Below are positions 17,176 to 32,145 of a stretch of 64,000 nt of DNA, piece by piece. The position numbers and the translations under genes were made by a program. Each line of letters begins with the position of its first letter. Positions within the stretch are counted from its first letter, which is position 1. The notes under the pieces were generated by a model. The model was not told the DNA's origin. It was given only the letters and a program-made list of their open reading frames with translations, and did no database searches. Source of the stretch: Syntrophales bacterium (lineage in GTDB: Bacteria; Desulfobacterota; Syntrophia; Syntrophales; UBA2210); contig JAQULO010000002.1 in assembly GCA_028718565.1 (NCBI GenBank), forward strand, positions 7,521 through 71,520. The letters run 5' to 3'.

Positions 17176-18714
17176 CTATTCATTCTTCCGTGACATGATA
17201 AAGAAAGGGGCGTGATTCGATGTAAACACCGTGGGGTCTCTTCGCACGATCGACTGGATTGCGGGATTCCTTCTGAACTCGCCGTCCAGAAACCGCCTCA
17301 CCTGCCCGCGGTTCCACCCCTCGGGGTGACGGAACTGTCGGTAGAGGGTCAGGTCGCCGGCATAAAAGTCTTCCGTATCCAGCTTTGCTGCGTCCGGGCC
17401 GTAGGCGGGCATGTTGAATATGGCGAGATTCAGGTAATCGATATATTCTCGGTGCCGTATAACATAATTGAGGGTATTTTGCGCCCCTCCGAGCGTCTCG
17501 GCGGGGGTCCCGAACAGAAGGTAGATGTAGGTGCCTATCCCGGCGTCCTTGAGATTCTTCAACGCCGCGGATGCCTCCGCCAAGTCGATCCCCTTGTCGA
17601 GGGCGTCAAGGACTCCCTGATCCCCCGACTCCAATCCGATCTTCAGCATGACACACCCCGAACGTTTCAGGCCTCTGCAAAAGCCGGGGTCGGTGAGGTG
17701 CCGGGTTATCCTGGCGAATCCGTACCAGGGAACGCCGGGGGGGCTGTCCGCTATCGTCGCAAGAAGCACCGGACTCATAGCGTTGTCGAGAAAGTGTATC
17801 AGAGCAGGCCCGTTGCTGTCGATAAGGGTGCCGATATCGGAGAGCGTCTCGTGGACCGGAGGGTGGGAATAGACACTCCCCTCGGCCTTCTCCGGGCAGA
17901 AGGTGCACCGGCCCCAGTAGCAGCCGCTCGACGCGCTGTAGGGGAGGACAAACCCCGGTGACAGGTAGGGGGTCTCGTGGAAAGGGGCGTAGTCCGGCAT
18001 GATGTGCCCGTTCGAAGGGGAGATGCCGAACATGCCGAGGAGGGGTGCCTCTCCCGGCCCCGCGATCATATCGTCGACAAGCCCGTCGAAGGGACTCTTC
18101 CAGTCTGGACTGCTGAGCCACGATGTCACCAGACCTCCCCCTAGGACGAGCCTCGCGTCCGGGCAGAGTTTCCGTATCAGGCCGATCAGGGAGAAGGCAG
18201 GGAGGGCCTGACTCAGATAGTTCAGTGAAAGCCCGACGACGGAGGGCTCCTCATCCGCGAAGAGTGCCCTCAGCCGCTCTGTAAAGTAGGGATAAAAGGG
18301 ACTCTTCTCCGGCTTTTCGGACGCCCCGATGAGATCGGAACTCCTGAGGGGTGAGAGGGCCCCGTCCTGGTAGTTTGCGAGGCCGAGCTGCACGCCGCGG
18401 GGGTGCGCCGCCAGATCGAGGACGCGGTTTATCTCCTTCACCGCCTGGGTATAACGGCCCGTATGCCTGTAAATATCCCGGTGCAGGAGCGCCGAGAGGT
18501 TCGCATGCAGGTGCCTCAGCGCCCGCCGGGACCACGTGTCATCGGACCCGGAGGGACACTCCAGTAGACTCATCAGGCCTTCGAGATTGGCATCCAGCAC
18601 GCGGCAGTGAACGCCGTGCCCCTTCAGCGTCCCCAGGAGCCTTGCAATCCCCGCGGGCGGCTCGCAGGGCCGTACGACGGGGGGGTTAATCAGAAACATA
18701 GTGCCGGATTCCAC
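17176..18714 (-). CDS. B12-binding-domain-like radical SAM protein
   Basis: Has an N-terminal Rossmann-like region and the cluster motif GCYWGRCTFC (C-x4-C-x2-C spacing, seen directly). The start may be the MFLINPP ATG at 18699. Confidence 0.75.
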   Translation of the reverse strand: MESGTMFLINPPVVRPCEPPAGIARLLGTLKGHGVHCRVLDANLEGLMSLLECPSGSDDTWSRRALRHLHANLSALLHRDIYRHTGRYTQAVKEINRVLDLAAHPRGVQLGLANYQDGALSPLRSSDLIGASEKPEKSPFYPYFTERLRALFADEEPSVVGLSLNYLSQALPAFSLIGLIRKLCPDARLVLGGGLVTSWLSSPDWKSPFDGLVDDMIAGPGEAPLLGMFGISPSNGHIMPDYAPFHETPYLSPGFVLPYSASSGCYWGRCTFCPEKAEGSVYSHPPVHETLSDIGTLIDSNGPALIHFLDNAMSPVLLATIADSPPGVPWYGFARITRHLTDPGFCRGLKRSGCVMLKIGLESGDQGVLDALDKGIDLAEASAALKNLKDAGIGTYIYLLFGTPAETLGGAQNTLNYVIRHREYIDYLNLAIFNMPAYGPDAAKLDTEDFYAGDLTLYRQFRHPEGWNRGQVRRFLDGEFRRNPAIQSIVRRDPTVFTSNHAPFFIMSRKNE

Positions 18715-19853: not shown

Positions 19854-20567
19854 TCATCCGAATATCTGCATCAATGGGTCATAGAAGGCTGGCGGCGGAC
19901 TTGAAAAGTCGTCGATTCGGCCGATAACTCCGGCGACTTTCACGCCAGAGGCATCTTCAACGGCCGCTCTGTTTTCGTCAATCATTTCAGCCGGGGTTTC
20001 GTTTTTTCCTGCATCGATGAAGACAACCCCGGAGGGAACAAATCCCCTGAGCTTCAGCGCCTCAATCGTAAGCAATGTGTGGTTGATCGTTCCCAGCCCG
20101 GCCCGTGCGGCTACAATGGGCTGTGCTTTTGTCAGCGATATCAGGTCGGCAACGGATCTATTCCCATCTACAGGGGCAAAGAGACCGCCCGCTCCTTCGA
20201 TAATCAGGGGGGTGTAGGTCGCGGCTTTCTCCTTCGCAATTTGTTCTATTGTCCCAAGGTCTATTGTTTTGCCTTCATCACGGGCGGCAAAGAGCGGCGC
20301 CTTGGGATTTTTGAAACAGTAGATGACCGAATCGGCGGGATTTTTGTCCCGTAGATTCTCCACACTGCGGTAAATGAAACGCGCGTCGCTCTCCATATCG
20401 TATGGATCCCTGCACCCTGTTTGCAAGGGCTTCAGGTAAAATGGATTATAACCTCTTGCAAAAAAGAAGTTCATCAACAGAAGGGAAAGCACGGTTTTTC
20501 CCACACCCGTATCTGTGCCGACGACGAATATAACGTTCTTACTCTTATTCAAGACTGCCATAAACAT
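19854..20567 (-). CDS. bioD: dethiobiotin synthase
   Basis: Contains the P-loop GTDTGVGKT and lies in a bio operon context. It overlaps the bioF stop. Confidence 0.9.
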   Translation of the reverse strand: MFMAVLNKSKNVIFVVGTDTGVGKTVLSLLLMNFFFARGYNPFYLKPLQTGCRDPYDMESDARFIYRSVENLRDKNPADSVIYCFKNPKAPLFAARDEGKTIDLGTIEQIAKEKAATYTPLIIEGAGGLFAPVDGNRSVADLISLTKAQPIVAARAGLGTINHTLLTIEALKLRGFVPSGVVFIDAGKNETPAEMIDENRAAVEDASGVKVAGVIGRIDDFSSPPPAFYDPLMQIFG

Positions 20568-21690
20568 CCTTCAGGTGTTCGATAAACAGATTGACATCTC
20601 CTTTTTCATGAAGCGCGGTGAGCCCTATCCTCAATATGGCTTGATGCCTGGGCACCGTCGGATAACGGGCTGGCATGACGAAGATCTTTTTCTCGAGAAG
20701 GAGCTGGGCCAACGTTGCCGCTTTCGCCTCTTCCCCTATTTCCAGGGCCAGGATGTGGGCATCACCGGAAACCCGGAATCCTTCGCGGATGAGGCATTCT
20801 TTCATAAATGCACTGATTGCTCCGAGCTTAATTCGCCTCTCTTCGCTTGAGGCGATCATGTCCAGCAGCAGCATGGCCGTGGCGGCATGCGCTTCAGGCA
20901 GTGCTGTTGTATACATGAGGGGCGATGCAAAGTTGAATAGGTATTCCTTGAATCCGCGGGGGAGCAGTACGAAAGCGCCAAAGAGGCCGAATGCCTTTCC
21001 AAAGGTGCCTACGGCGATATCGGCGACCGAACTGGCAATACCGCGGCCTCCGATACCCAATGCCCCGAAGGCATGCGCTTCGTCAACAATCGTCAGAAAA
21101 CTATAGCGTTCTTTCAGGTCGCTCAAACCGGACACATCCAGCAGATCTCCGTCCATGCTGAAGAGAGACTCCGTCAGGACGGCAGCCTGGTTGTCTCTGT
21201 GCGCGTCCAGCCGCTTTTCGAGATGGGTCAGGGAGTTGTGGTTGTAGCCGTAGAAATCGGCCCCGCTCATGACCATCCCCTTCACACTGCTCGCGTGTAC
21301 GTGCTTGTCAAAAATGGCCGTATCACCCTTATCGAGGAAGGTGGAAATGACAGCCATGTTGGCCTGGTAGCCGCTCGGGAAAAAAATGGCGTCATCGTAT
21401 CCGAAATACGCGGCATACGCCCTTTCCGCCTCGTTTATGACAGTGTAGTTCCCCGAAGCCAGCCTGGATGACGAGGAGGAGGTCCCATACCTCCGGAAAT
21501 TGGCGGCCGTCATGTGCCGCAACTCCGTGGAAGTACCCAGCCCGAGATAGTCGTTAGAGGCAAAGTTCAGCACCCTCTCGCCGCCGACAAGAAGGTGACT
21601 TCCCTCCCTTCCCCCAACCTCCGGCGGGTTGCGGTAGAGGCCCGCCTGATGCTGTAGCCTCAATCGGGCTGTGTATCGTTCAGCAAACAT
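20545..21690 (-). CDS. bioF: 8-amino-7-oxononanoate synthase
   Basis: An alpha-oxoamine synthase fold with the PLP lysine region TFGKAFG and SNDYLGL near the N-terminus. Confidence 0.9.
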   Translation of the reverse strand: MFAERYTARLRLQHQAGLYRNPPEVGGREGSHLLVGGERVLNFASNDYLGLGTSTELRHMTAANFRRYGTSSSSSRLASGNYTVINEAERAYAAYFGYDDAIFFPSGYQANMAVISTFLDKGDTAIFDKHVHASSVKGMVMSGADFYGYNHNSLTHLEKRLDAHRDNQAAVLTESLFSMDGDLLDVSGLSDLKERYSFLTIVDEAHAFGALGIGGRGIASSVADIAVGTFGKAFGLFGAFVLLPRGFKEYLFNFASPLMYTTALPEAHAATAMLLLDMIASSEERRIKLGAISAFMKECLIREGFRVSGDAHILALEIGEEAKAATLAQLLLEKKIFVMPARYPTVPRHQAILRIGLTALHEKGDVNLFIEHLKDVYGSLE

Positions 21691-22133
21691 AAAAATTTTT
21701 TCTCGTAATGACCACGCAAAGTTTCTCTTTCAAATTGTTGACCGTAGTCAGAGGCTGCGTAGAAAAATTCACCTTCGATAACGGGATCTGTGTTTTTCTC
21801 GGCCTTGAGCCCGCAACAAAAGGCCGACTTGCTCCGGCTCAGGAGGTTACCGGATAAAATGAATTCCCCATCTAAAGGCTTCCCCGGGGGAATGCGGCAA
21901 ATGCCTATCTTCAGGAGGAATATGTGCCTCTCAAAACCTGTCAGGTGGCGGATATGAAAGGCCCCCAACTGGGCAAGCGCCTCCAGCCCCATATAGACAG
22001 GGGTGCCGCAAAAAACCCGGATAGCCCCGATTTTCGTCGCACTTACACCCGTGATGGTGTCCAGCATGACAAAGGTGTCAAGCCCGGTATGAATCTCGAT
22101 CTCCGTCTCGGCCATTGTTCCGTTCAACCCCAT
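21660..22133 (-). CDS. hotdog-fold (FabA/FabZ-like) protein lacking the obvious catalytic His motif
   Basis: The ORF 21660..22265 was trimmed to MGLNGT (22133). The central helix EALAQLGAFHI resembles the FabZ EAxAQ helix, but no GHFP motif is present. Confidence 0.5.
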   Translation of the reverse strand: MGLNGTMAETEIEIHTGLDTFVMLDTITGVSATKIGAIRVFCGTPVYMGLEALAQLGAFHIRHLTGFERHIFLLKIGICRIPPGKPLDGEFILSGNLLSRSKSAFCCGLKAEKNTDPVIEGEFFYAASDYGQQFERETLRGHYEKKFLCLLNDTQPD

Positions 22134-22144
22134 TTCCGAGAACC

Positions 22145-23353
22145 TCAATATACGCTCTTTACAACAAGGGCGCTGTTCTGTCCGCCGAATCCGAAGTTTT
22201 CGATGACCGCCGTGCCGAACGGGGCAGACATCCCGCTCCTGACAAATTTGACCTCTCCGTGACAAGGTTCGTCAAGATTTCTGATCTCGGGGAGGTATCC
22301 GTCCCGCATGCAGGCAAGTGTTATGGCAAGCTCCAGCGCGCCGCATGCGGAAGCTGCATGGCCAATCCACGACTTCAGTGCAATTACAGAGGGTTGCGCC
22401 TTCCCATATATCTCAAAAATGATATTAGCTTCCATTTCATCATTGAGCACGGTTCCCGTACCGTGCGCGGATACGGCGTCTATCTGCGATGGAGAGACCT
22501 CAGCCTCTTTCAGCGCCGCATTCATGGCGTCCTTCGCGCTCCGCCCGCTTTTTTCGGGAGCCGTCATGTTATGCGCGTCGAGCGAGCACCCGTAGCCGCA
22601 CAGCTCTGCGTAAATTTCCGACCCCTGTTTCTTTGCCTGTTCTAACTCCTCAAGGAGGAAGAAGGCCCCTCCCTCACCCGGCACAAATCCATTCCGGCCG
22701 CAGTCGAACGGCCTGCTTGCCTTTTCAGGTTTGCCGCTACCAATGCACAGCGCCTTCGCTTTTTTGTATGCCAGGATACCGCCGGAGCTGAGCCGGGAAT
22801 CTCCTCCCCCGGCCAGGGCGCAATTCAGGTAGCCATCCTTTATCTTCCGGTAAGCCTCCCCGATGGCCTGCAGCGATGAAGAGCAGGCGGTCGACACGGT
22901 AAGGTTTTCCCCGTGGATTCCTATGAGCTGGGAGATGACGGATGCTGCCGTATTTGGCAGAAATTTCAGGATCCACAGCGCCTGGAGGTCATTACGGTCA
23001 ATGTTTCCTTTGGTGACCTCCGGAAATTCTCCGCCGATGTCAAGGTTTGGTCCCGCGCCGACAAAGAGACCGGCCCTTGCAAAACTTTCTTTTAAAGACC
23101 CTGAATTCCGCACCGCATCGATAGCGGAGGCGACGGAAAATTGCGCCCCCCGGTTCAAATAGCGGCCGTCCTTAAAGGGCCCCGTATAGGACCTGATATT
23201 GAAGTTTCTGACCGGAGCGACAACAACTTCCCCGTCAGACGCCTGCCTCTCAAAGGCGACTTTCCTTCCTTTCAGACTCATTATGATTTCATCCGGTGTG
23301 CAACCGAGAGAGGAAACAACCCCTATGGATGTAATGACGACCCTTCGTTTCAT
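22145..23353 (-). CDS. beta-ketoacyl-ACP synthase I/II-type (FabF/FabB-like)
   Basis: Has the active-site Cys in STACSSS, His residues in DAHNMTAP and SAHGTGT, and a C-terminal GFGGQNSALV. Confidence 0.9.
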   Translation of the reverse strand: MKRRVVITSIGVVSSLGCTPDEIIMSLKGRKVAFERQASDGEVVVAPVRNFNIRSYTGPFKDGRYLNRGAQFSVASAIDAVRNSGSLKESFARAGLFVGAGPNLDIGGEFPEVTKGNIDRNDLQALWILKFLPNTAASVISQLIGIHGENLTVSTACSSSLQAIGEAYRKIKDGYLNCALAGGGDSRLSSGGILAYKKAKALCIGSGKPEKASRPFDCGRNGFVPGEGGAFFLLEELEQAKKQGSEIYAELCGYGCSLDAHNMTAPEKSGRSAKDAMNAALKEAEVSPSQIDAVSAHGTGTVLNDEMEANIIFEIYGKAQPSVIALKSWIGHAASACGALELAITLACMRDGYLPEIRNLDEPCHGEVKFVRSGMSAPFGTAVIENFGFGGQNSALVVKSVY

Positions 23354-23995
23354 TCAGACTTCCCGGTAAATTTCTGCCAATTCTTTCCGGCTGATAAATG
23401 CCGGCTTTTCGGCAGGATACCCTGTTGTGATGAAGCACCTGACACTGGTCCCATCCAGAGAAAGACTCTTTTCCGGCTCATCTATGAAAATGAGCGGCGC
23501 CGTGAGGATACAGGAACCAAGACCAAGCTCTTCTCCCTTCAGGAGGTATCCCATCAGGGCAAGTCCGACGGAGATATCGAGGTCTCTGTGCCTTTCATCG
23601 CGCCTCCCGCAGTACCCCGGGTCGGGCAGGCTTTCCGTCAGACTGGGGACCTCCATCGTAGTCCCTACGGCAAAAAGCGCCGGGGCATCAAACATAAACT
23701 CTGAAAAGCGGTAAGAGACGTTGACCCGGTTCCTCAATTTTTTTGGACTGTCTGAGTCTGTGACGGTGGTAAGCAGCCTTTCCCGTCCAAGGAGCATGGC
23801 CTCGCGAAGAGCGGCTTTAGCCCCGGATGAGATGACACGGATGAAACGCACCGGTTGCCTGTTTGATGGAGATGGTGCTTTTATTGCTGCGGAGATCATC
23901 TTCAGCAGGCATTCCTCCGGCGGGGGCGTGTCGGTATATTTCCGAACGCTTCTCCTTGCGTCGATCAGCCTGTCAAGAGTCGTCATTACCTGCAT
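23354..23995 (-). CDS. nitroreductase-family FMN flavoprotein
   Basis: N-terminal RRSVRKY and APSPSNRQP motifs. It abuts the KAS start with zero gap and overlaps the ACP stop. Confidence 0.8.
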   Translation of the reverse strand: MQVMTTLDRLIDARRSVRKYTDTPPPEECLLKMISAAIKAPSPSNRQPVRFIRVISSGAKAALREAMLLGRERLLTTVTDSDSPKKLRNRVNVSYRFSEFMFDAPALFAVGTTMEVPSLTESLPDPGYCGRRDERHRDLDISVGLALMGYLLKGEELGLGSCILTAPLIFIDEPEKSLSLDGTSVRCFITTGYPAEKPAFISRKELAEIYREV

Positions 23996-24368
23996 GCCGC
24001 GCCCTTTCCAGCTGATACGTTACATAGTCCACCAGGTCCCTTATCTTGAGCTGGGGGCCTTCCACGGTCCGGGCAGCAATCTCCTTGATCCTGTCTTTTG
24101 TAAGGAAAGGGTACTTCTCCGCAATATACGGAACGGTGTCCGCCATCTGCTGCTCTGCCTCCGACATGTAATGTCTGAAGCACCCGAGAAAAATATCATC
24201 GTCTTTTACCGGAATCTTGAATCGATTGTTTATAGCGACCGCCAGTTCTAACAGATCAATCGATTCCGCGCCCAGATCCTTGATCAGGTACGTATCCGGA
24301 GTTATATCGCTGTCCTCCAGGTCAAGGAGTTCCGCAAGTATTTTCTCTATTTCCGCAAATATATTCAT
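23973..24368 (-). CDS. acyl carrier protein with about 50-aa C-terminal extension
   Basis: Has the phosphopantetheine-site context DLGAESIDLLELA. It is 131 aa, versus about 80 aa for canonical ACP. Confidence 0.8.
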   Translation of the reverse strand: MNIFAEIEKILAELLDLEDSDITPDTYLIKDLGAESIDLLELAVAINNRFKIPVKDDDIFLGCFRHYMSEAEQQMADTVPYIAEKYPFLTKDRIKEIAARTVEGPQLKIRDLVDYVTYQLERARHAGNDDS

Positions 24369-24426: not shown

Positions 24427-25221
24427 TCATTTTCCGGATGTGAGTCCGCCGTCCATGGTCACCACCGTGCCGTTGATGCCGTCTCCCCCATCGGAGAGGA
24501 GAAAAAGTATCGTATGCGCTATCTGTTCGCGGGTTATCGCTCTATTGGTCGGAACCTTATCAAGCACCGCCTTGCCTTTCCTCCTGATATACGCGGCGCC
24601 TCTCCCCGCGTTGACATAGCCGGGTCGAAGGATTGCCACAGTGATACCTCGTCCAGCCATTTCCAGCCCCATATTGAGGTACAGCGCCTCTGAGGCACGT
24701 TTCGCCGCCGCATAGAATCCCTGTCCCGGATTGGGCCTCTCTGCCGCGGTTGAGGAAATATAGATGAGTCTTCCCTTTCTTTTTTTTAGCATTGCCCGCC
24801 CGGCTCGCTTCAATATCCATGCCCGGAAGGAAACATTCTCCGTAAAGTAACGACAGGTCATATCCTCATCAGCCGACGCAACGAGGCTCTCATAATCGTC
24901 ATTAACAAAATCTATCAAGACGTCTAAATCTTCAGCGATATCAGTGAAGAGGGTATCAAGCGTTTCCCGTTCTCCGAAGTTCAGATAATGGCTCTCGAAT
25001 CTCCCGGCGAATGGCAGCATGGATTCAGATATCGCCTGAAGTCCCCTGTCGCTCCTGTAGGTAAGAATAGGATAGAGGGAAGCTTCGATCATGGATTGCG
25101 CCAGGGTCAGGGCGAGTTCGCAGCTCCCTCCCAGGATCAGGGCGCGTTTACCCGTAAATGTTCCTTTCAAATTTTCATGACTCCCGTTACCAGTTTTTTG
25201 TCCCCGCGACTTATAGAGCAC
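24427..25221 (-). CDS. short-chain dehydrogenase/reductase (FabG-like ketoreductase)
   Basis: SDR fold with the S...YaaaK catalytic region (SSTAAERPNPGQGFYAAAKRA). It has an atypical Gly motif, LILGGSCELA. The start is uncertain. Confidence 0.8.
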   Translation of the reverse strand: MLYKSRGQKTGNGSHENLKGTFTGKRALILGGSCELALTLAQSMIEASLYPILTYRSDRGLQAISESMLPFAGRFESHYLNFGERETLDTLFTDIAEDLDVLIDFVNDDYESLVASADEDMTCRYFTENVSFRAWILKRAGRAMLKKRKGRLIYISSTAAERPNPGQGFYAAAKRASEALYLNMGLEMAGRGITVAILRPGYVNAGRGAAYIRRKGKAVLDKVPTNRAITREQIAHTILFLLSDGGDGINGTVVTMDGGLTSGK

Positions 25222-25529
25222 AGGATACGGTTTTCCCCGAATTCCATCCTGAACGGATAACGGCCTGGCTTGAGAAATTCCCGGAATCTGACATTCTCTA
25301 TCGAGAGAACATCTCCCTTGATCTCGGCCTCCCTGACGGCCGTAAGAAATGCGTGGACAATCAGACTTCCCGGGACGACCGGGTATCCCGGAAAATGTTC
25401 CCGGTAGATGCCGTCTCCGGGATCAAAGTGAAACACCCCTTCCAGGACATCTTCAGTGTTCACAGCGTTCTCAGAGGCGACCATAGTCTGCGGCCTCCGT
25501 GATGACCCGGATCGACTCATATGTCGCAT
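25167..25529 (-). CDS. short FabZ-like 3-hydroxyacyl-ACP dehydratase
   Basis: Contains EHFPGYPVVPGSLIVHAF (compare the FabZ GHFPxxPVMPGVL motif). The likely start is MVASEN at 25484, and it overlaps the bioA stop. Confidence 0.75.
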   Translation of the reverse strand: MRHMSRSGSSRRPQTMVASENAVNTEDVLEGVFHFDPGDGIYREHFPGYPVVPGSLIVHAFLTAVREAEIKGDVLSIENVRFREFLKPGRYPFRMEFGENRILCSISRGDKKLVTGVMKI

Positions 25530-26859
25530 CGCAGATTTGATCCATTTCCTGTAGGGAGATGGCGAGCGGAGGCATCAGTACAACGACATCACCCAGAGGC
25601 CGGATAATGACCCCTCGCTTTCGCGCCTCCGTGATGACCCGGTGACCAGTCCGTTTTTCCGGAGTGAAGGGTTCTTTTGTTTCCCGGTTTGCGACAAGCT
25701 CTATCCCGACCATGAACCCGCATTGGCGGACGTCACCGACATGCGCAAGAGACGTGAAGGGCTCCAACTTTTTCGTGAAATGGGCGATTTTTGCCTGGAG
25801 ATTTTCTATGGTGCGTTCCTTCTCAAAGACCTCCAGGTTGGCGATGGCGACCGCGCAGGCCAGCGCGTTTCCCGTATAGGTGTGCCCATGAAAGAACGTC
25901 TTGAATTCTTCGTACTCTCCCAGAAAACCTTCGTAGATTTTCTCGCTTGCAAGCGTGGCGGCAAGCGGCAGATATCCTCCCGTGATCCCTTTGGCGACAG
26001 CCATGATATCCGGTGAGACACCCTCGTGCTGACAGGCAAACATCTTTCCGGTTCTTCCGAATCCGACGGCGACTTCATCGGCGATCATAAAGACACCAAA
26101 GCGTGTGCAGAGCTCACGCACTCTTTTTAGATACCCTGGCGGCTGGACGAGTATTCCCCCGGCTCCCTGAACTATGGGTTCGACGATCAGGGCGGCAGCC
26201 TCGTGGTGATGTTTTGCCATGGCATCCTCCATATCGCTCAGACATTCCATGCCACAGGAAGGATATGACTTTTCAAAAGCGCAACGATAGCAGTAGGGAG
26301 AGGTTACCTTAATGGTTTTGAACAAAAGTTCTTTGTACATGGAGTGAAAGAGGTCGATGCCGCCAACACTTACGGAACCTATTGTATCCCCATGATAGGC
26401 ATTGGACAGGTGAATGAATTTTTGCTTGTTCGGATCTCCTCCCGGTGCTTGCCGGTGGTACTGAAAGGCTATCTTCAAAGCTATTTCAACTGCCGTGGAG
26501 CCGCTGTCGGAATAGAAAACCCTGGTCAAACCTTCCGGAGCTATTTCAATAAGGCTTTTTGCCAGCCTGATTGCGGGAACACCGGAAAGTCCCAGCAATG
26601 TGGAGTGAGCTAACTTCCCTACCTGGTCTACAAGGGCGCGATCCAGGGCCTCTTTTCTGTGTCCGTGGATGTTGGTCCATAGCGAGGAAACAGCGTCGAT
26701 ATACCGATTCCCATCGACATCTATCAGAATGCATCCTTCTCCCTGCTCAATTATCGGTGGCTTTTCATCTACATAGCCGCGCATTTGGGTAAAAGGATGC
26801 CAAAGGTACTTCCCGTCAACTTCCGCCAGGTCTTTATACTCTTGTCCGCATTCCGTCAT
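25471..26859 (-). CDS. bioA: adenosylmethionine-8-amino-7-oxononanoate aminotransferase
   Basis: A class III aminotransferase with LWHPFTQM and DEVAVGFGRTGK motifs, in a bio context. Confidence 0.92.
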   Translation of the reverse strand: MTECGQEYKDLAEVDGKYLWHPFTQMRGYVDEKPPIIEQGEGCILIDVDGNRYIDAVSSLWTNIHGHRKEALDRALVDQVGKLAHSTLLGLSGVPAIRLAKSLIEIAPEGLTRVFYSDSGSTAVEIALKIAFQYHRQAPGGDPNKQKFIHLSNAYHGDTIGSVSVGGIDLFHSMYKELLFKTIKVTSPYCYRCAFEKSYPSCGMECLSDMEDAMAKHHHEAAALIVEPIVQGAGGILVQPPGYLKRVRELCTRFGVFMIADEVAVGFGRTGKMFACQHEGVSPDIMAVAKGITGGYLPLAATLASEKIYEGFLGEYEEFKTFFHGHTYTGNALACAVAIANLEVFEKERTIENLQAKIAHFTKKLEPFTSLAHVGDVRQCGFMVGIELVANRETKEPFTPEKRTGHRVITEARKRGVIIRPLGDVVVLMPPLAISLQEMDQICDATYESIRVITEAADYGRL

Positions 26860-26874
26860 TTTTCGCTATTCCTT

Positions 26875-27858
26875 TTACTTGTTGAGCGGGGAAACGTCAC
26901 CGGAGATTATCCTCCTGAGCATCCCCTCCTGATCCCTCATGATCAAAAATCCATCTTCATTGATGTCCTGAAAAATGCCCGTATAGGTGGTATCGATGAC
27001 ATCGACGCTGATTTTTGTTCCGATCATTTTTGTGAGTTGTTTCCATCGTTTCATGATCGGGTCGAACCCGTGCGTTTTGAAGGTCTTGTTATATTCTTCC
27101 AGAAGCTCCAGGCAGGTTCGCAGGATGACCGCTCTGGAAAAAAATCTTCCCGTTTCAATGAACAGAGAGGTGGCCTTGTCCCTGATGTCGGACGGAAGAC
27201 TTTCCCGGGTAGTGTTCACATTTATACCCACACCGATAACAACGTGATAGACCCTGTCCATTTCGGCTTTCATTTCAGTGAGAATTCCGGCCACCTTCCT
27301 TCCCCCGATCAGGACGTCGTTCGGCCATTTGATGGATGCATTTACAGGCGCGCAGGCAAGAATAGCCTCCGCTACTGCGACGGAGGCCATCAGCGTCAGT
27401 TTTGGGGCCTCGTTGGGGGAAATCTGCGGACGTAAAATGAAGGAGGCGCAGATTCCTTCCCCGGTCGGAGAAAACCACGATCTCCCCCTTCTACCTCTTC
27501 CCCGTGTCTGCCATTCTGCTACAACGACAGTGCCTTCAGGCGCCCCTTCATTTGCTAAATGTTCAGCCTGAAGATTAGTGGAATCCGTATCGCTAAAATG
27601 GAAAATGCGGCTCTTTCCGAAGACGCTGGTCTTCAGACCCTCTTTGACCTCGTTTTCGAGGAGACAGTCGGGGCTCCCCCGCAAGACATATCCTTTTTTC
27701 CGAGATGATTCTATTATGTAGCCATCTTTTTTCAGCGCGCCAATGTGCTTCCAGATGGCCGTCCGGGAAATCGTCAGCCTCCGCCCCAGGAACTCACCGG
27801 AGAGCCAGGTCCCTTTTTCTTCTTTCAGGCATGCTAGGAGTATTTCTTTTGTAGACAT
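26875..27858 (-). CDS. birA: bifunctional biotin-[acetyl-CoA-carboxylase] ligase / bio operon repressor
   Basis: Has an N-terminal wHTH (ISRTAIWKHIGALKKDGYIIES) and a GRGRRGRSW biotin-binding loop. The start was set to the ATG at 27858 (the ORF track uses the TTG at 27894, inside the operator). Confidence 0.92.
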   Translation of the reverse strand: MSTKEILLACLKEEKGTWLSGEFLGRRLTISRTAIWKHIGALKKDGYIIESSRKKGYVLRGSPDCLLENEVKEGLKTSVFGKSRIFHFSDTDSTNLQAEHLANEGAPEGTVVVAEWQTRGRGRRGRSWFSPTGEGICASFILRPQISPNEAPKLTLMASVAVAEAILACAPVNASIKWPNDVLIGGRKVAGILTEMKAEMDRVYHVVIGVGINVNTTRESLPSDIRDKATSLFIETGRFFSRAVILRTCLELLEEYNKTFKTHGFDPIMKRWKQLTKMIGTKISVDVIDTTYTGIFQDINEDGFLIMRDQEGMLRRIISGDVSPLNK

Positions 27859-27880
27859 GGAATGGCTGATACCATCTACC

Positions 27881-27919
27881 TTGACATATGTCAACTAGAA
27901 CTTTAATTATGGTTGACAT
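27881..27919. promoter_or_regulatory. candidate BirA operator in the birA/bioB divergent promoter region
   Basis: ATGTCAAC (27888..27895), a 16-nt spacer, then GTTGACAT (27912..27919) form a perfect inverted repeat. An extra abutting half-site TTGACAT lies at 27881..27887. The layout resembles the 40-bp bioO type of site. Confidence 0.65.
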
Positions 27920-27997
27920 ACATATCCTTCTCTGTTATGCAGCCCCGGTGGTTGCCGGGTATTTGATATGAATAATCGCCGGCAAAGGAGGAGAAAT

Positions 27998-28981
27998 ATG
28001 ATCAGCGCAAATATCGCCGGAATTGCCGAGAAGATTTTACGTGAGGGTGAAAATGTCCTGTCTTTCGACGATGTCCGCGCGCTTGCCCATCTTCCTGAAG
28101 AAAACACCATAGATCTCCTGTACTGCGCGCATAGAATCAGGAAACACTATAAGAACGAACTCATTATCTGTTCCATTATCAATGCAAAGTCTGGACTCTG
28201 CACCGAGGACTGTGCATTTTGTTCGCAGTCGTCACATCACTCAACGGGAATAGACATATACCCCTTGCTGGACAAGGAAGAAATCGTCAGCCGGGCTCAT
28301 GACATGAAGAAAGCGGGCGCGACGAGATTCTCCATGGTAACAAGCGGAGTTATGCTCACGGATAAAGAGCTGAACACCGTCTGCAGTGCTGCGGAAACCA
28401 TCGCCAGGGAAACGAAGGTCACGGTATGCGGTTCTCTGGGCATGCTCGACGAATCCATGGCTGTCCGTCTCAGAAAAGGGGGCCTTTCCGTGTATCATCA
28501 CAATCTGGAAACCGCCCGGAGCCATTTCGATAGAGTATGTACCACCCACTCATATGATGAAGACATACAGACGGTAAAAAGCGCCGGGGCGACCGGCATG
28601 AGGGTGTGTTCGGGAGGTATTCTGGGCCTGGGTGAAAACTGGGAACAGCGCATGGAGCTTGCCTTCACCCTCAGGGAGCTTGACGTGGACGGGATTCCCC
28701 TGAATTTTCTGAACCCAATTCCAGGGACGCGCATGGAGGCCATGCCCCTGCTTTCACCCATGGAAGCACTGAGATGTATAGCCCTCTTCAGGCTGGTCAA
28801 CCCATCGAAGGATATCATTATTTGCGGCGGCAGGGAGGTGACGCTCAGGGATTATCAATCTTGGATATTTTTTGCCGGTGCCAATGGTCTCATGATCGGC
28901 AATTATCTGACAACGCAGGGACGAAATATCCAGATGGATATCGATATGCTGAAACAGAGCGGGACAGAATACCTCAGCTAA
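27998..28981 (+). CDS. bioB: biotin synthase
   Basis: Contains the radical SAM motif CTEDCAFCSQS. The start was set to the ATG at 27998, which is preceded by AAAGGAGGAG. Confidence 0.93.
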   Translation: MISANIAGIAEKILREGENVLSFDDVRALAHLPEENTIDLLYCAHRIRKHYKNELIICSIINAKSGLCTEDCAFCSQSSHHSTGIDIYPLLDKEEIVSRAHDMKKAGATRFSMVTSGVMLTDKELNTVCSAAETIARETKVTVCGSLGMLDESMAVRLRKGGLSVYHHNLETARSHFDRVCTTHSYDEDIQTVKSAGATGMRVCSGGILGLGENWEQRMELAFTLRELDVDGIPLNFLNPIPGTRMEAMPLLSPMEALRCIALFRLVNPSKDIIICGGREVTLRDYQSWIFFAGANGLMIGNYLTTQGRNIQMDIDMLKQSGTEYLS

Positions 28982-28990
28982 CGATAAGGC

Positions 28991-29716
28991 TTAAATATGC
29001 ATGACCCCTCTCGCCTTCCGGAGGTTTTTCCAGAAGGGCTTGTATAGGAAACTCTCTTCGCCCAGGCCGCAGAGCTGTTCGTACATCGGCCGAGTGACCG
29101 TAAAGGCGAGCAGCTCCGGGTCCAGATACCGGCGCATCGCGATATCCGTTGCGCCGATAATCGCCTGGGCGACGCCCAGGTCATCAAAGGGGGCGACCAG
29201 TTGGGAGCACCCCGACCCGAATGGCGCGATCACCGGGGCAGGATCGCCCGGCGCGCTGTAATACTGGGCGCCCGTCATGAGCAGGCCCATCTGATCGGGG
29301 TTGACAAAGAAGGTCACGCTCCTGAGATACTCATACTGATCCGCGCGTAGCGGACCGATGAGGATGTGGGGGTTTTTCTGGTCATACCCGGCACGGTAAT
29401 CCAGCCACTGGTTCATCGGGGCGTGCGATGCCTTCAGTCCCTCGTCATTCACGAGGAAGCTGACCATGTCCTCCCTCGACCGCGTTTCCGCGCCGCACAG
29501 CCAGTGACCGGCCCCACCGCAGCCGAAGTTCTCTTTCGTCAGGTGCAGAGTCTTTCCGCGAAGCCACTGCCGGTAGAAGGCGAACACACATGCCCGGGTG
29601 CCTGGTTTCGGTTTCACCAGCGGCTCGAACGGATGGATGTCGGGCGCGTCGTAGAACCCTATCAGAGGTATCTCCAGGCCGGCCTTCTCAAGCAGGTTTG
29701 TCGCATCAGGTTGCAT
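28991..29716 (-). CDS. DUF169-like protein of unknown function
   Basis: A 241-aa protein with GCGGAGHW and GSGCSQ motifs. The family call is from memory and tentative. Confidence 0.5.
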   Translation of the reverse strand: MQPDATNLLEKAGLEIPLIGFYDAPDIHPFEPLVKPKPGTRACVFAFYRQWLRGKTLHLTKENFGCGGAGHWLCGAETRSREDMVSFLVNDEGLKASHAPMNQWLDYRAGYDQKNPHILIGPLRADQYEYLRSVTFFVNPDQMGLLMTGAQYYSAPGDPAPVIAPFGSGCSQLVAPFDDLGVAQAIIGATDIAMRRYLDPELLAFTVTRPMYEQLCGLGEESFLYKPFWKNLRKARGVMHI

Positions 29717-30072: not shown

Positions 30073-32145
30073 ATGGTGGACAACGAGACAACAGATATGA
30101 CGCTCTTCGTCAGGACGTCGGAAGCGGATATTACCGGCTGGGACAGGCGAAAGATCGTTGATGCCCTGATCCGGGAGGCCGGTGTGGACCTTGATACGGC
30201 GGAGGAGATAAGCCGGGAGGTGGCGGATCGGATCGCCTCATCGGGGATCGATATCCTTACCGCATCGCTGATACGAGAACTGGTGGATTCACGGCTGATC
30301 GAGCGGGGAATGAAGGAGGCGACGAAACTACATGCCCGCCTGGGGTTTCCTCTCTATGACGTGGGCCAGCTTATCCTGTACCGTAACAAGGAGAATGCCA
30401 ATATCCCCCACAGCCCCGAGGGGACAAACCTGACCCTGGCCCAGGGGATCAAGAAGGAATTCGCCATCCTCAATGTCTTCTCGGAGGATGTCGGGTATGC
30501 CCACATGGGGGGGGACATCCATATCCACAACCTGGGGTATGTGGACAGACCCTACTGCTCCTGTCAGTCTCTCGAATATATAAAGAAATTCGGGCTGAAT
30601 CTCCCCAATTCCCTTGCCGTCGCGGTGCCCGCAATGCACGCGGAGGTGCTGTTGTCGCACATGGTGAGATTTGCCGCCGCCCTTCAGGGTAACTTTGCCG
30701 GGGCCATCGGATGGGACGCCGTCAACCTCTTTTTCGCCCCCTATCTGGAGGAACTGACCGATCGGGAGGTCATGCAACTGGCGCAGAGGCTGATCTATGA
30801 ATTCGCCCAGCAGGCCGTTGGTAGAGGAGGGCAGACGATCTTTACCGATATACACCTCTACTGGGATGTCCCCCGGTATTTCAAGGACGTTCCCGCCATA
30901 GGCCCTGGGGGGGAGTATACGGGCAAGACTTACGGGGAGTACGAGAAGGATGCACAGCGGTTTGCCAGAGCCCTCTTCAAGGTACTCGGGAAGGGGGACG
31001 CTGCGGGGCGTCCCTTTGTCTTCCCCCGGCCCTTTGTGCATATAACGGAGAAGTTTTTCCGGGTTCCTGGTCACGAGGAGTTTCTGGATGCCGTTTGTAA
31101 TGTGGCCGCTGATAAGGGGAGTCCCCACTTTATCTTCGACAGAGATAACACCCTCAATATGTCCGAATGCTGCAACCTGGACATGAACGGCGCGGAAGAG
31201 ATGGTCGATGCGCGCGAGCCGTGGAAGATGCGTTATTTCGGCATCCAGAACGTGTCGATAAACCTCCCCCGACTGGGGTATAAGGCAGGGGGGGATGACA
31301 AGCGACTTTTTTCAATGATTGCCGATATCATGAGCCTTGCCGCGAAGGCCCACTTGCAGAAGCGGGACTTTATCGAAGGCCTTTTGTCGCACGGCGGTGA
31401 GGGCCCGTTATCCCTCCTGACCATGGGGTATGACGGTATGCCGTACCTGAGGATGAACCGGTCCGTATACCTTATGGGGATAATTGGCCTCAACGAACTG
31501 GTATGGGCGCATATGGGGCGTCAGCTCCATGAGGCGGAGATCCCCCGCGAGTTCGGGCGGGGCGTTGTCCGGTACATGAAAGAGGTCGCCGATACCCTGA
31601 CGAAGGCGCACGGCATACGATTTATCCTTCAGCAATCACCGGCGGAGAGTACCCCCTACCGCCTGGCACGGCTGGACCTGAAACATTTCTCTCCGACGGC
31701 GGGACATTTTGTGCGGGGCGACATATCGAAGGGAACTGTATATTATACCAACTCGACACTTCTCGCGGCATCATCGTCCATTGATCCTTTCGAGAGAGCG
31801 GCCTTTGAAGGTGCTATCCACCCCTTCATGGAGGGGCATGCCGCGACCTGTATATGGCTGGGTGACACGCGACCTGACCCGAAGGGCCTGGCCGGGTTTG
31901 TCAGGAAAGTCTTCATGGAGACCGAAAACCGGCATGTGGTATTCTCGCCCGAGTTCACCACCTGCCTGGAGTGCAACACGACGTCCAGGGGCATCACGGA
32001 CTCGTGCCCCTTGTGCGGTTCGGGTAATGTGGAGGGGATTGCCCGGGGCGCGGGATATTTTTCCCGGATGTCGAACTGGAACAAGGGAAAACTGGCGGAA
32101 CTGAGGGACCGCAAGAATCAGGGGGGCGCCTTCGGCGGGGTTTAG
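30073..32145 (+). CDS. nrdD: anaerobic ribonucleoside-triphosphate reductase (class III)
   Basis: Has an N-terminal ATP-cone, a C-terminal Zn site CLECN...CPLCG, and the glycyl-radical region IARGAGYFSR. Confidence 0.92.
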   Translation: MVDNETTDMTLFVRTSEADITGWDRRKIVDALIREAGVDLDTAEEISREVADRIASSGIDILTASLIRELVDSRLIERGMKEATKLHARLGFPLYDVGQLILYRNKENANIPHSPEGTNLTLAQGIKKEFAILNVFSEDVGYAHMGGDIHIHNLGYVDRPYCSCQSLEYIKKFGLNLPNSLAVAVPAMHAEVLLSHMVRFAAALQGNFAGAIGWDAVNLFFAPYLEELTDREVMQLAQRLIYEFAQQAVGRGGQTIFTDIHLYWDVPRYFKDVPAIGPGGEYTGKTYGEYEKDAQRFARALFKVLGKGDAAGRPFVFPRPFVHITEKFFRVPGHEEFLDAVCNVAADKGSPHFIFDRDNTLNMSECCNLDMNGAEEMVDAREPWKMRYFGIQNVSINLPRLGYKAGGDDKRLFSMIADIMSLAAKAHLQKRDFIEGLLSHGGEGPLSLLTMGYDGMPYLRMNRSVYLMGIIGLNELVWAHMGRQLHEAEIPREFGRGVVRYMKEVADTLTKAHGIRFILQQSPAESTPYRLARLDLKHFSPTAGHFVRGDISKGTVYYTNSTLLAASSSIDPFERAAFEGAIHPFMEGHAATCIWLGDTRPDPKGLAGFVRKVFMETENRHVVFSPEFTTCLECNTTSRGITDSCPLCGSGNVEGIARGAGYFSRMSNWNKGKLAELRDRKNQGGAFGGV

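Follow-up and report, generated by a model that had tools for sequence, protein, structure and literature searches.

The source of pimelate in bacteria lacking BioC/BioH, BioW, BioI, BioZ and BioE is an open biochemical question. Genes resembling those of fatty acid synthesis, found inserted in the bio operon of Desulfovibrio, were predicted to make the pimeloyl precursor (Rodionov et al., 2004; PMC545781), and the Desulfobacterota module has since been validated genetically (Trotter et al., 2023, Front Microbiol; PMC10102598). Trotter et al. also described a nitroreductase-like gene inside the bio cluster of Syntrophobacter fumaroxidans and Desulfobacter vibrioformis and proposed that such in-cluster proteins are the missing enoyl-acyl carrier protein (ACP) reductase (PMC10102598). 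Here we analyze a gene of this kind in a 64,000-nucleotide stretch of DNA (the window) from a Syntrophales bacterium (assembly GCA_028718565.1, contig JAQULO010000002.1). The gene encodes a protein of 213 aa, hereafter NTR (23354..23995, minus strand), which by its sequence is a flavin mononucleotide (FMN)-type nitroreductase-fold protein of the Desulfobacterota "extended bio operon" module. We judge the chances that NTR is the dedicated enoyl-ACP reductase of this module to be about even.

The reading of NTR as an enoyl reductase, one of two that the first-pass annotation of the window had offered, is not new but rediscovers the hypothesis published in 2023 by Trotter et al. The gene is another member, from a Syntrophales-like genome, of an already described family, and we found no later literature that settles the chemistry of the module. 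NTR is 45% identical to the copy of a Syntrophobacteraceae metagenome-assembled genome (MAG; L084), and like the in-cluster family of Trotter et al., from which it differs in nothing essential, it occupies the slot between the ACP and the β-ketoacyl-ACP synthase (KAS) genes in a bioA...bioF cluster, with the same role proposed. Its identity to 79 of the 80 loci that we collected, Syntrophobacteraceae and Desulfobacteraceae included, amounts to 40–66% (one locus stands at 38%), which agrees with the >40% identity that delimits the family.

The second described relative is DVU1220 of Desulfovibrio vulgaris Hildenborough, a nitroreductase-family flavoprotein that genetic data link to the same atypical route to biotin. 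Transposon fitness data indicate that DVU2558-DVU2565 and the unlinked DVU1220 are needed by D. vulgaris in the absence of biotin; DVU1220 is required even though the organism has an essential candidate for a housekeeping reductase, DVU2064 (PMC10102598). The protein is predicted to bind FMN and [4Fe-4S] and is only distantly related to the in-cluster group (PMC10102598). It is encoded away from the cluster, whereas NTR lies within it and has no Fer4 match in Pfam. Two candidate counterparts of DVU1220 (L103 and L102, orthology unconfirmed) carry an N-terminal 2x[4Fe-4S] ferredoxin domain. We also asked whether Fer4-nitroreductase fusions are confined to genomes without the in-cluster NTR; no such pattern emerged, with homologs (29–34% identity) in two of five NTR-less and three of five NTR-bearing module genomes, and paralogy blocks a conclusion.

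Protein Family and Predicted Fold of NTR

The first-pass annotation had placed a nitroreductase-fold gene of 213 aa at 23354–23995 and gave no strand; the open reading frame (ORF) and its Pfam match bear this out, and both motifs that it quoted are present (ARRSVRKY and APSPSNRQPVRF). The match to PF00881 (Nitroreductase; E 3.7e-22, 79.7 bits against a cut-off of 23.5) spans residues 11–193 of the 213, and at E<=0.01 the only Pfam families recovered are the nitroreductase-type PF00881 and PF14512. NTR has 424 database relatives at E<=1e-5; among the matches listed, 119 besides that of the window itself are 48–67% identical and mostly full length, and they stem from Syntrophales, Desulfobacterales and "Deltaproteobacteria" MAGs. 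Judging from these homologs, NTR is a real, conserved gene.

NTR and its orthologs form a distinct family, with a mean column identity of 61% over 31 aligned sequences and conservation of R14, R15, S16, R18, P41-S42-P43, N45, Q47-P48, R50-F51, N89, R96, G158, G160, C162, and C187. Of the invariant cysteines, C162 or C187 might conceivably act as a proton donor. The R-x-S-x-R segment (R14/R15-S16-x-R18) and P41-S42-P43-x-N45-x-Q47-P48 are invariant or nearly so in the 31 orthologs; R-x-S-x-R and P-S-x-x-N/x-Q-P segments we take to be FMN-binding in nitroreductases, with R-x-S-x-R at the FMN phosphate. The AF2 model (pLDDT 82.4, pTM 0.78) displays a nitroreductase fold and, at residues 57–103, an excursion of two helices. 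The structural comparison proposed in the first-pass annotation agrees with the family assignment, as Foldseek pairs the model with many nitroreductase-fold structures at probability 1.0 and with TM values up to 0.80. A complex prediction with two NTR chains, two FMN molecules and the ACP of the module scored 0.01 and is counted neither way. No NCBIfam equivalog cut-off is reached by NTR; its best models are the FbiB C-terminal domain, BluB, NfsA and RutE, all far under their cut-offs.

Gene Order and Conserved Context

On the minus strand of the window the genes are arranged as birA-bioA-hotdog-SDR-ACP-NTR-KAS-hotdog-bioF-bioD, where SDR stands for a short-chain dehydrogenase/reductase, and bioB is divergent. 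The Pfam/NCBIfam scan returned the condensing, ketoreductase, dehydratase and carrier functions anticipated for the module, i.e., KAS, an SDR with the YxxxK motif, hotdog proteins and ACP. It also returned no FabI/FabK/FabL/FabV-type gene within the module, as the first-pass annotation had noted, with an unlinked FabK-family gene elsewhere in the genome. The gene junctions, too, were read correctly: the ACP frame ends at 23973 and the NTR ATG lies at 23995, which gives a 23-nt overlap with the ACP stop inside the NTR frame, and the KAS ATG follows the NTR TGA directly, with zero gap. A Shine-Dalgarno-like box, GGAAAGGG, is located 6 nt upstream of the NTR ATG. At 23973–24000 the ACP frame of the window runs ~9 codons longer than in many close relatives, whose ACP ends ...GV* just ahead of where NTR begins. 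Hence, the overlap of 23 nt is local rather than conserved.

A profile scan of one genome per GTDB species retrieved 80 loci, all of Desulfobacterota type except one contig of a "Methanosarcinaceae" MAG; the following counts refer to the testable loci among them. ACP lies directly upstream of NTR in 73/73 loci and KAS directly downstream in 70 of 72. The first hotdog gene is present in 66 of 69 related loci, the second hotdog gene, downstream of KAS, in 64 of 68, and the SDR gene in 60 of 69. In most loci the spacing of the ACP and NTR matches runs from an overlap of 19 nt to ~30 nt, and in many the genes overlap; the NTR and KAS matches are mostly 3–10 nt apart. Such short distances along ACP-NTR-KAS are consistent with translational coupling, and NTR keeps this slot throughout Syntrophales, Desulfobacterales, Desulfarculales, and Syntrophobacteraceae.

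Some loci depart from the common organization. The clusters of Syntrophus spp. (L055, L058, L064, L069) and L046, L051, and L077 keep the first hotdog gene, ACP and NTR and have no SDR; KAS is retained in the SDR-less clusters except L077, which ends at NTR. Keto reduction is presumably left to the housekeeping FabG there. In L038 (2816-6186) and L085 (202-1213) the cluster stops after ACP-NTR, and there is no KAS, bioF or bioD within 7.5–8 kb downstream. A module-type KAS was not found in the genome of L038 (G478, 88% complete), and the operon of L038 may be split or partly unassembled. The "Methanosarcinaceae archaeon" contig (L030, JBQVLY010000058.1) is 9 kb long; the hotdog-SDR-ACP-NTR-KAS module on it is bacterial, and the encoded KAS is all but the same as in a "Deltaproteobacteria" MAG and falls within a clade of Desulfobacteraceae MAGs. 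The contig is probably a binning contaminant rather than a case of transfer.

Presence and Absence of NTR

We found that NTR is distributed together with the ACP of the module, which is longer than usual by a C-terminal extension. Among 201 genomes of the order of the window, the long ACP occurs in 57 and NTR in 55, all of which are within the 57, and wherever the two share a contig they are adjacent by coordinates. The two ACP-only genomes, G426 (L120:4310-7918) and G435 (L121:6405-10974), possess a bioA-longACP-bioF-bioD organization; the L121 cluster reads bioB-bioA-ACP-bioF-bioD, without elongation genes and NTR. KAS, SDR, both hotdog genes and NTR are thus missing together from G426 and G435, and a module-type KAS was not found elsewhere in these genomes. 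This joint loss implies that NTR tracks the elongation enzymes and not BioF or BioB, and argues against a role late in the pathway. The persistence of the special ACP between bioA and bioF suggests that it is the dedicated carrier of BioF, loaded by another route in G426 and G435.

In a second order (96 genomes) ACP was detected in 17 genomes and type-A NTR in nine. The NTR-negative ones are of two kinds, three with full type-A modules and five with divergent type-B modules, in which KAS is 36–40% and ACP 26–29% identical to those of the window. Two type-B loci hold a nitroreductase-like ORF of 216–218 aa (L125:9375-10031 and L128:9340-9990; RYSER..., HAPSPSGRNPF...) in the same ACP-NTR-KAS slot. 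The slot NTR is thereby present in two of four testable type-B loci, the fifth (L126) ending before the slot. Type-B NTR is 23–27% identical to that of the window and has R14, S16, R18, P41, S42, P48, F51, R96, S98, F100, C162, C187, and G192 in common with it. Its best match in the genome of the window is NTR itself; the family profile scores it no better than an unrelated paralog. On this sequence evidence, type-A and type-B NTR are likely, though not securely, of common origin.

What these data add to the published picture is that NTR travels with the KAS and hotdog genes rather than with BioF or BioB, that it can be lost, and that the corresponding slot of a second module type holds a distant version of it.

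Proposed Role of NTR

The first-pass annotation had offered two functions for NTR, a non-canonical enoyl-thioester reductase or another redox step specific to an omega-carboxy acyl chain. A role within the module is backed by the comparison across genomes, whereas the enoyl-reductase assignment is arrived at only by elimination: beside the ketosynthase, the ketoreductase-type SDR, the dehydratase-like hotdog proteins and ACP, NTR is the only other redox enzyme. The same assignment is favored by the fixed ACP-KAS slot, the loss of NTR with the elongation genes and the recurrence in the type-B slot, as well as by the nitroreductase requirement of D. vulgaris and by relatives of NTR that reduce C=C bonds.

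From this context we infer the substrate, reaction and electron donor of NTR. The module would build pimeloyl-ACP on its own long ACP. Malonyl units would be condensed by KAS, the 3-keto group reduced by the SDR, and dehydration carried out by the hotdog protein(s), after which C3 of the omega-carboxy 2-enoyl-ACP would receive a hydride from the reduced flavin of NTR. NTR would act on glutaconyl-ACP in the first round and possibly on 2,3-didehydropimeloyl-ACP in the second, and the products, glutaryl-ACP and pimeloyl-ACP, would lead on to BioF. Electrons could be provided by NAD(P)H, free FMNH2 or ferredoxin/flavodoxin.

In the genome of the window (G000, an assembly of 2.53 Mb and 98% complete) we found no BioC above the cut-off and no BioW, and the module is therefore the only recognizable pimelate route there. 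Should NTR prove to be the enoyl reductase, it would also reveal how elongation copes with a free omega-carboxylate. We tentatively go one step further, at slightly less than even chances, and suggest that the NTR family represents a previously unrecognized structural class of enoyl-ACP reductases: nitroreductase-fold, FMN-dependent, ancestral to the module, specialized for omega-carboxy substrates and working on a dedicated long ACP. The special substrate of such a class is most likely glutaconyl-ACP of the first elongation round. Since FabI of Escherichia coli handles a later round, the first, from glutaconyl-ACP to glutaryl-ACP, is the likeliest to need a special enzyme, and we infer that the free carboxylate near the reaction center is what makes it special. 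An enzyme of this class would account for pimelate synthesis by these anaerobes in the absence of the BioC/BioH methyl-ester disguise.

Several observations weigh against NTR as the dedicated enoyl-ACP reductase. The FabG, FabA and FabI proteins of E. coli turn the condensation product of BioZ into pimeloyl-ACP in vitro (PMC7645780), which means that an ordinary reductase can do at least the second round. The unlinked FabK-family gene in the genome of the window (G000:C29:2446-3462; 238 bits with TIGR03151 against a cut-off of 453, Pfam NMO 7e-55) could serve. In the type-A modules of G368 (L086:328-1985), G618 (L122:7549-9205), and G590 (L123:8696-10353), KAS follows ACP after ~95 nt with no NTR between them. 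G368 is 93% complete and yielded neither an NTR ortholog at E<=1e-25 nor a Fer4-nitroreductase homolog at E<=1e-8; the function of NTR is therefore dispensable or replaceable. NTR is also absent from the type-B loci L124 and L127 and from the Desulfovibrio-like clusters L087 and L088, in whose genomes a Fer4-nitroreductase fusion is encoded elsewhere. The nearest relatives of NTR include iodotyrosine deiodinase (IYD) and BluB-like deposits, and the FbiB assay was fed with FMNH2, which puts the electron source of NTR in doubt; to our knowledge, neither IYD nor BluB is driven by NAD(P)H. As weak evidence, no fused forms were detected at E<=1e-20 among proteins of 374–2000 aa, i.e., neither an ACP-NTR nor an NTR-KAS fusion.

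As for the NTR-less trio G368, G618, and G590, we placed it in a quick tree of KAS sequences, most of them ascertained via NTR, with the genome's own FabF as outgroup and midpoint rooting. The trio forms one clade (support 100) nested in an NTR-bearing group (support 91, moderate), with the type-B clade as sister group of all other sequences. This topology suggests a secondary loss or deletion of NTR in the trio. Orthologous bio clusters thus do not always carry the gene: the ACP-NTR-KAS order is nearly fixed where NTR is present, but some otherwise equivalent modules lack NTR.

Alternative Explanations

The alternative that survives best, although we consider it unlikely, is that a housekeeping FabK-like enoyl-ACP reductase does the enoyl step and that NTR has another pathway-specific job on ACP-bound intermediates or an accessory one. 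It might possibly supply reduced flavin or electrons to a partner in the module, or act on one unusual intermediate only. The FabK-family gene and the existence of NTR-less modules speak for this explanation, as does the finishing of 3-ketopimeloyl-ACP by FabI in vitro (PMC7645780), and the option was left open by Trotter et al. (PMC10102598). Yet, the obvious chemistry from malonyl to pimeloyl units requires no other redox step, and the tight ACP-NTR-KAS coupling together with the joint loss with the elongation genes argues for a catalytic member of the module. D. vulgaris, moreover, needs a nitroreductase despite its essential housekeeping reductase candidate.

An exchange of roles, with NTR reducing the 3-keto group in the manner of RutE and the SDR acting as enoyl reductase, we regard as highly improbable. 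Within the superfamily, malonic semialdehyde is the substrate of RutE-type reductases, and FabI and FabL are SDRs. The N-terminal part of NTR indeed matches the RutE model weakly (NF003768, E 1.3e-5), but the score of 24.8 bits compares with a cut-off of 152. The SDR is absent and NTR kept in nine of 69 related clusters, and the best Pfam model of the SDR is named "Enoyl-(ACP) reductase"; this model, PF13561, presumably takes in FabG-type proteins too. Against the exchange, the SDR has the YxxxK spacing of a classical ketoreductase, whereas FabI and FabL have Y-x6-K, and its best NCBIfam matches are of FabG type, with none to FabI or FabL.

Equally hard to credit is that NTR works outside chain elongation, late in the pathway, and serves BioB, a radical-SAM enzyme, for example by donating electrons or reducing flavin. 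BioB requires a reducing system, and the phenotype of DVU1220 alone does not show which stage is blocked. NTR is, however, wedged between ACP and KAS and not placed beside the divergent bioB, it is missing from L121, where bioB is kept and the elongation genes are gone, and its orthologs occur only in long-ACP genomes in both order samples. Finally, nitroreductase paralogs are common, with four others in the genome of the window, but a general detoxifying or housekeeping nitroreductase brought into the operon by chance is the least credible explanation of all, given the position fixed across four Desulfobacterota lineages, the distinct orthologous family and the lack of orthologs both in genomes without the long ACP (both order samples) and, as far as seen, outside bio clusters.

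Other Genes of the Module and of the Window

The module-specific long ACP (23973..24368, minus strand, 131 aa) matches PF00550 at 9e-11 over residues 6–60, with its attachment site, Ser36, in DLGAESID; the C-terminal extension of ~55 aa is conserved in an alignment of 29 orthologs (R65, P87, R93, G104-P105, D111, Y115). KAS (22145..23353, minus strand) is a FabF/FabB-type β-ketoacyl-ACP synthase by PF00109 and PF02801 and reaches 291 bits with TIGR03150, under the 494-bit cut-off. The FabG-like SDR (24427..25221, minus strand, exact start uncertain) has an S...YxxxK motif and matches adh_short_C2 at 1.4e-23 and the FabG models at ~1e-25, all under their cut-offs. The first hotdog protein (25167..25484, minus strand) is short and FabZ/FabA-like, with the motif HFPGYPVVPG and a PF07977 match at 9e-6, while the second hotdog-like ORF (21660..22133, minus strand) has no match in Pfam or NCBIfam.

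The biotin genes proper comprise bioF, encoding 8-amino-7-oxononanoate synthase (20545..21690; PF00155 at 7.6e-45), bioD, encoding dethiobiotin synthetase (19854..20567; PF13500 at 2.7e-39), and bioA, encoding a class-III aminotransferase (25471..26859; PF00202 at 4e-105), all on the minus strand. The first gene of the operon is birA (26875..27894, minus strand), which codes for a helix-turn-helix domain and a biotin-protein ligase (PF03099, PF08279, PF02237), and biotin synthase bioB (27968..28981, plus strand; PF04055 and PF06968) is transcribed divergently. Further neighbors, with no link to NTR, encode a DUF169 protein (28991-29716), a radical SAM protein with a B12-binding domain (17176-18714) and the anaerobic ribonucleotide reductase NrdD (30073-32145).

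Elsewhere in the genome, FabI was not found among the SDR-like ORFs, which match FabG-type and other SDR models only. The FabK-family gene (region C29:1713-3462) lies outside any fab operon and adjoins a gene whose N-terminus, read by eye, appears MerR-like. Another stretch resembling FabK (G000:C6:22191-22763) is interrupted by a TAG stop. The four nitroreductase paralogs contain no CxxCxxCxxxC ferredoxin motif, and the genome has no Fer4-NTR homolog at E<=1e-8.

Comparison With Known Systems

The best full-length PDB matches of NTR, by sequence and by structure, are 3EO8 and 3GFA (profile E 1.4e-21 and 7.4e-21; Foldseek E 1e-13 to 1e-12, ~25% identity). Both are uncharacterized Clostridioides difficile proteins, deposited as "BluB-like flavoprotein" and "putative nitroreductase," respectively, and we know of no link of either to biotin clusters. 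The closest characterized structural relative is FbiB's C-terminal domain (PDB 4XOO/4XOQ; Foldseek E ~1e-11, TM 0.72–0.80, 21–23% identity). This domain is a dehydro-F420-0 reductase, which reduces a methylene C=C bond with FMNH2, provided via Fre in the assay, and holds the carboxylate of its substrate by an arginine (PMC6450877). The reaction is FMN-dependent and the C=C bond reduced adjoins a carboxylate, much as in the chemistry proposed for NTR. Yet, NTR is not a member of the FbiB family (49.3 bits with TIGR03553 against a cut-off of 249.55): it is a stand-alone protein of 213 aa encoded in a bio operon and not fused to a CofE-like ligase, and its substrate and genomic context differ.

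Bacterial IYD is among the next-best Foldseek matches after 3GFA/3EO8 and FbiB; its best sequence match spans only residues 4–110 of NTR. The BluB model (TIGR02476) gives 37 bits, where 150 are required, and aligns with no more than the N-terminal 70 residues of NTR, which thus falls outside all of these families. The family profile also matches, weakly and in the N-terminal part only, the deposits "Enone reductase CLA-ER" (4QLX) and "Albonoursin synthase" (8UC3). Two of the relatives, FbiB's C-terminal domain by fold and CLA-ER, a deposited enone reductase, by weak sequence similarity, are C=C reductases. Reduction of C=C beside a carboxyl or carbonyl group is therefore established chemistry for the nitroreductase fold.

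The canonical enoyl-ACP reductases, i.e., FabI and FabL (SDRs), FabK (an FMN-containing TIM barrel of the NMO family) and FabV, have folds unrelated to that of NTR, which belongs to none of their families. FabK is FMN-dependent, as is proposed for NTR, and the reaction that all of them would have in common with NTR is the reduction of 2-enoyl-ACP. Were NTR indeed an enoyl reductase, the known classes of enoyl-ACP reductases would be joined by one with a new fold.

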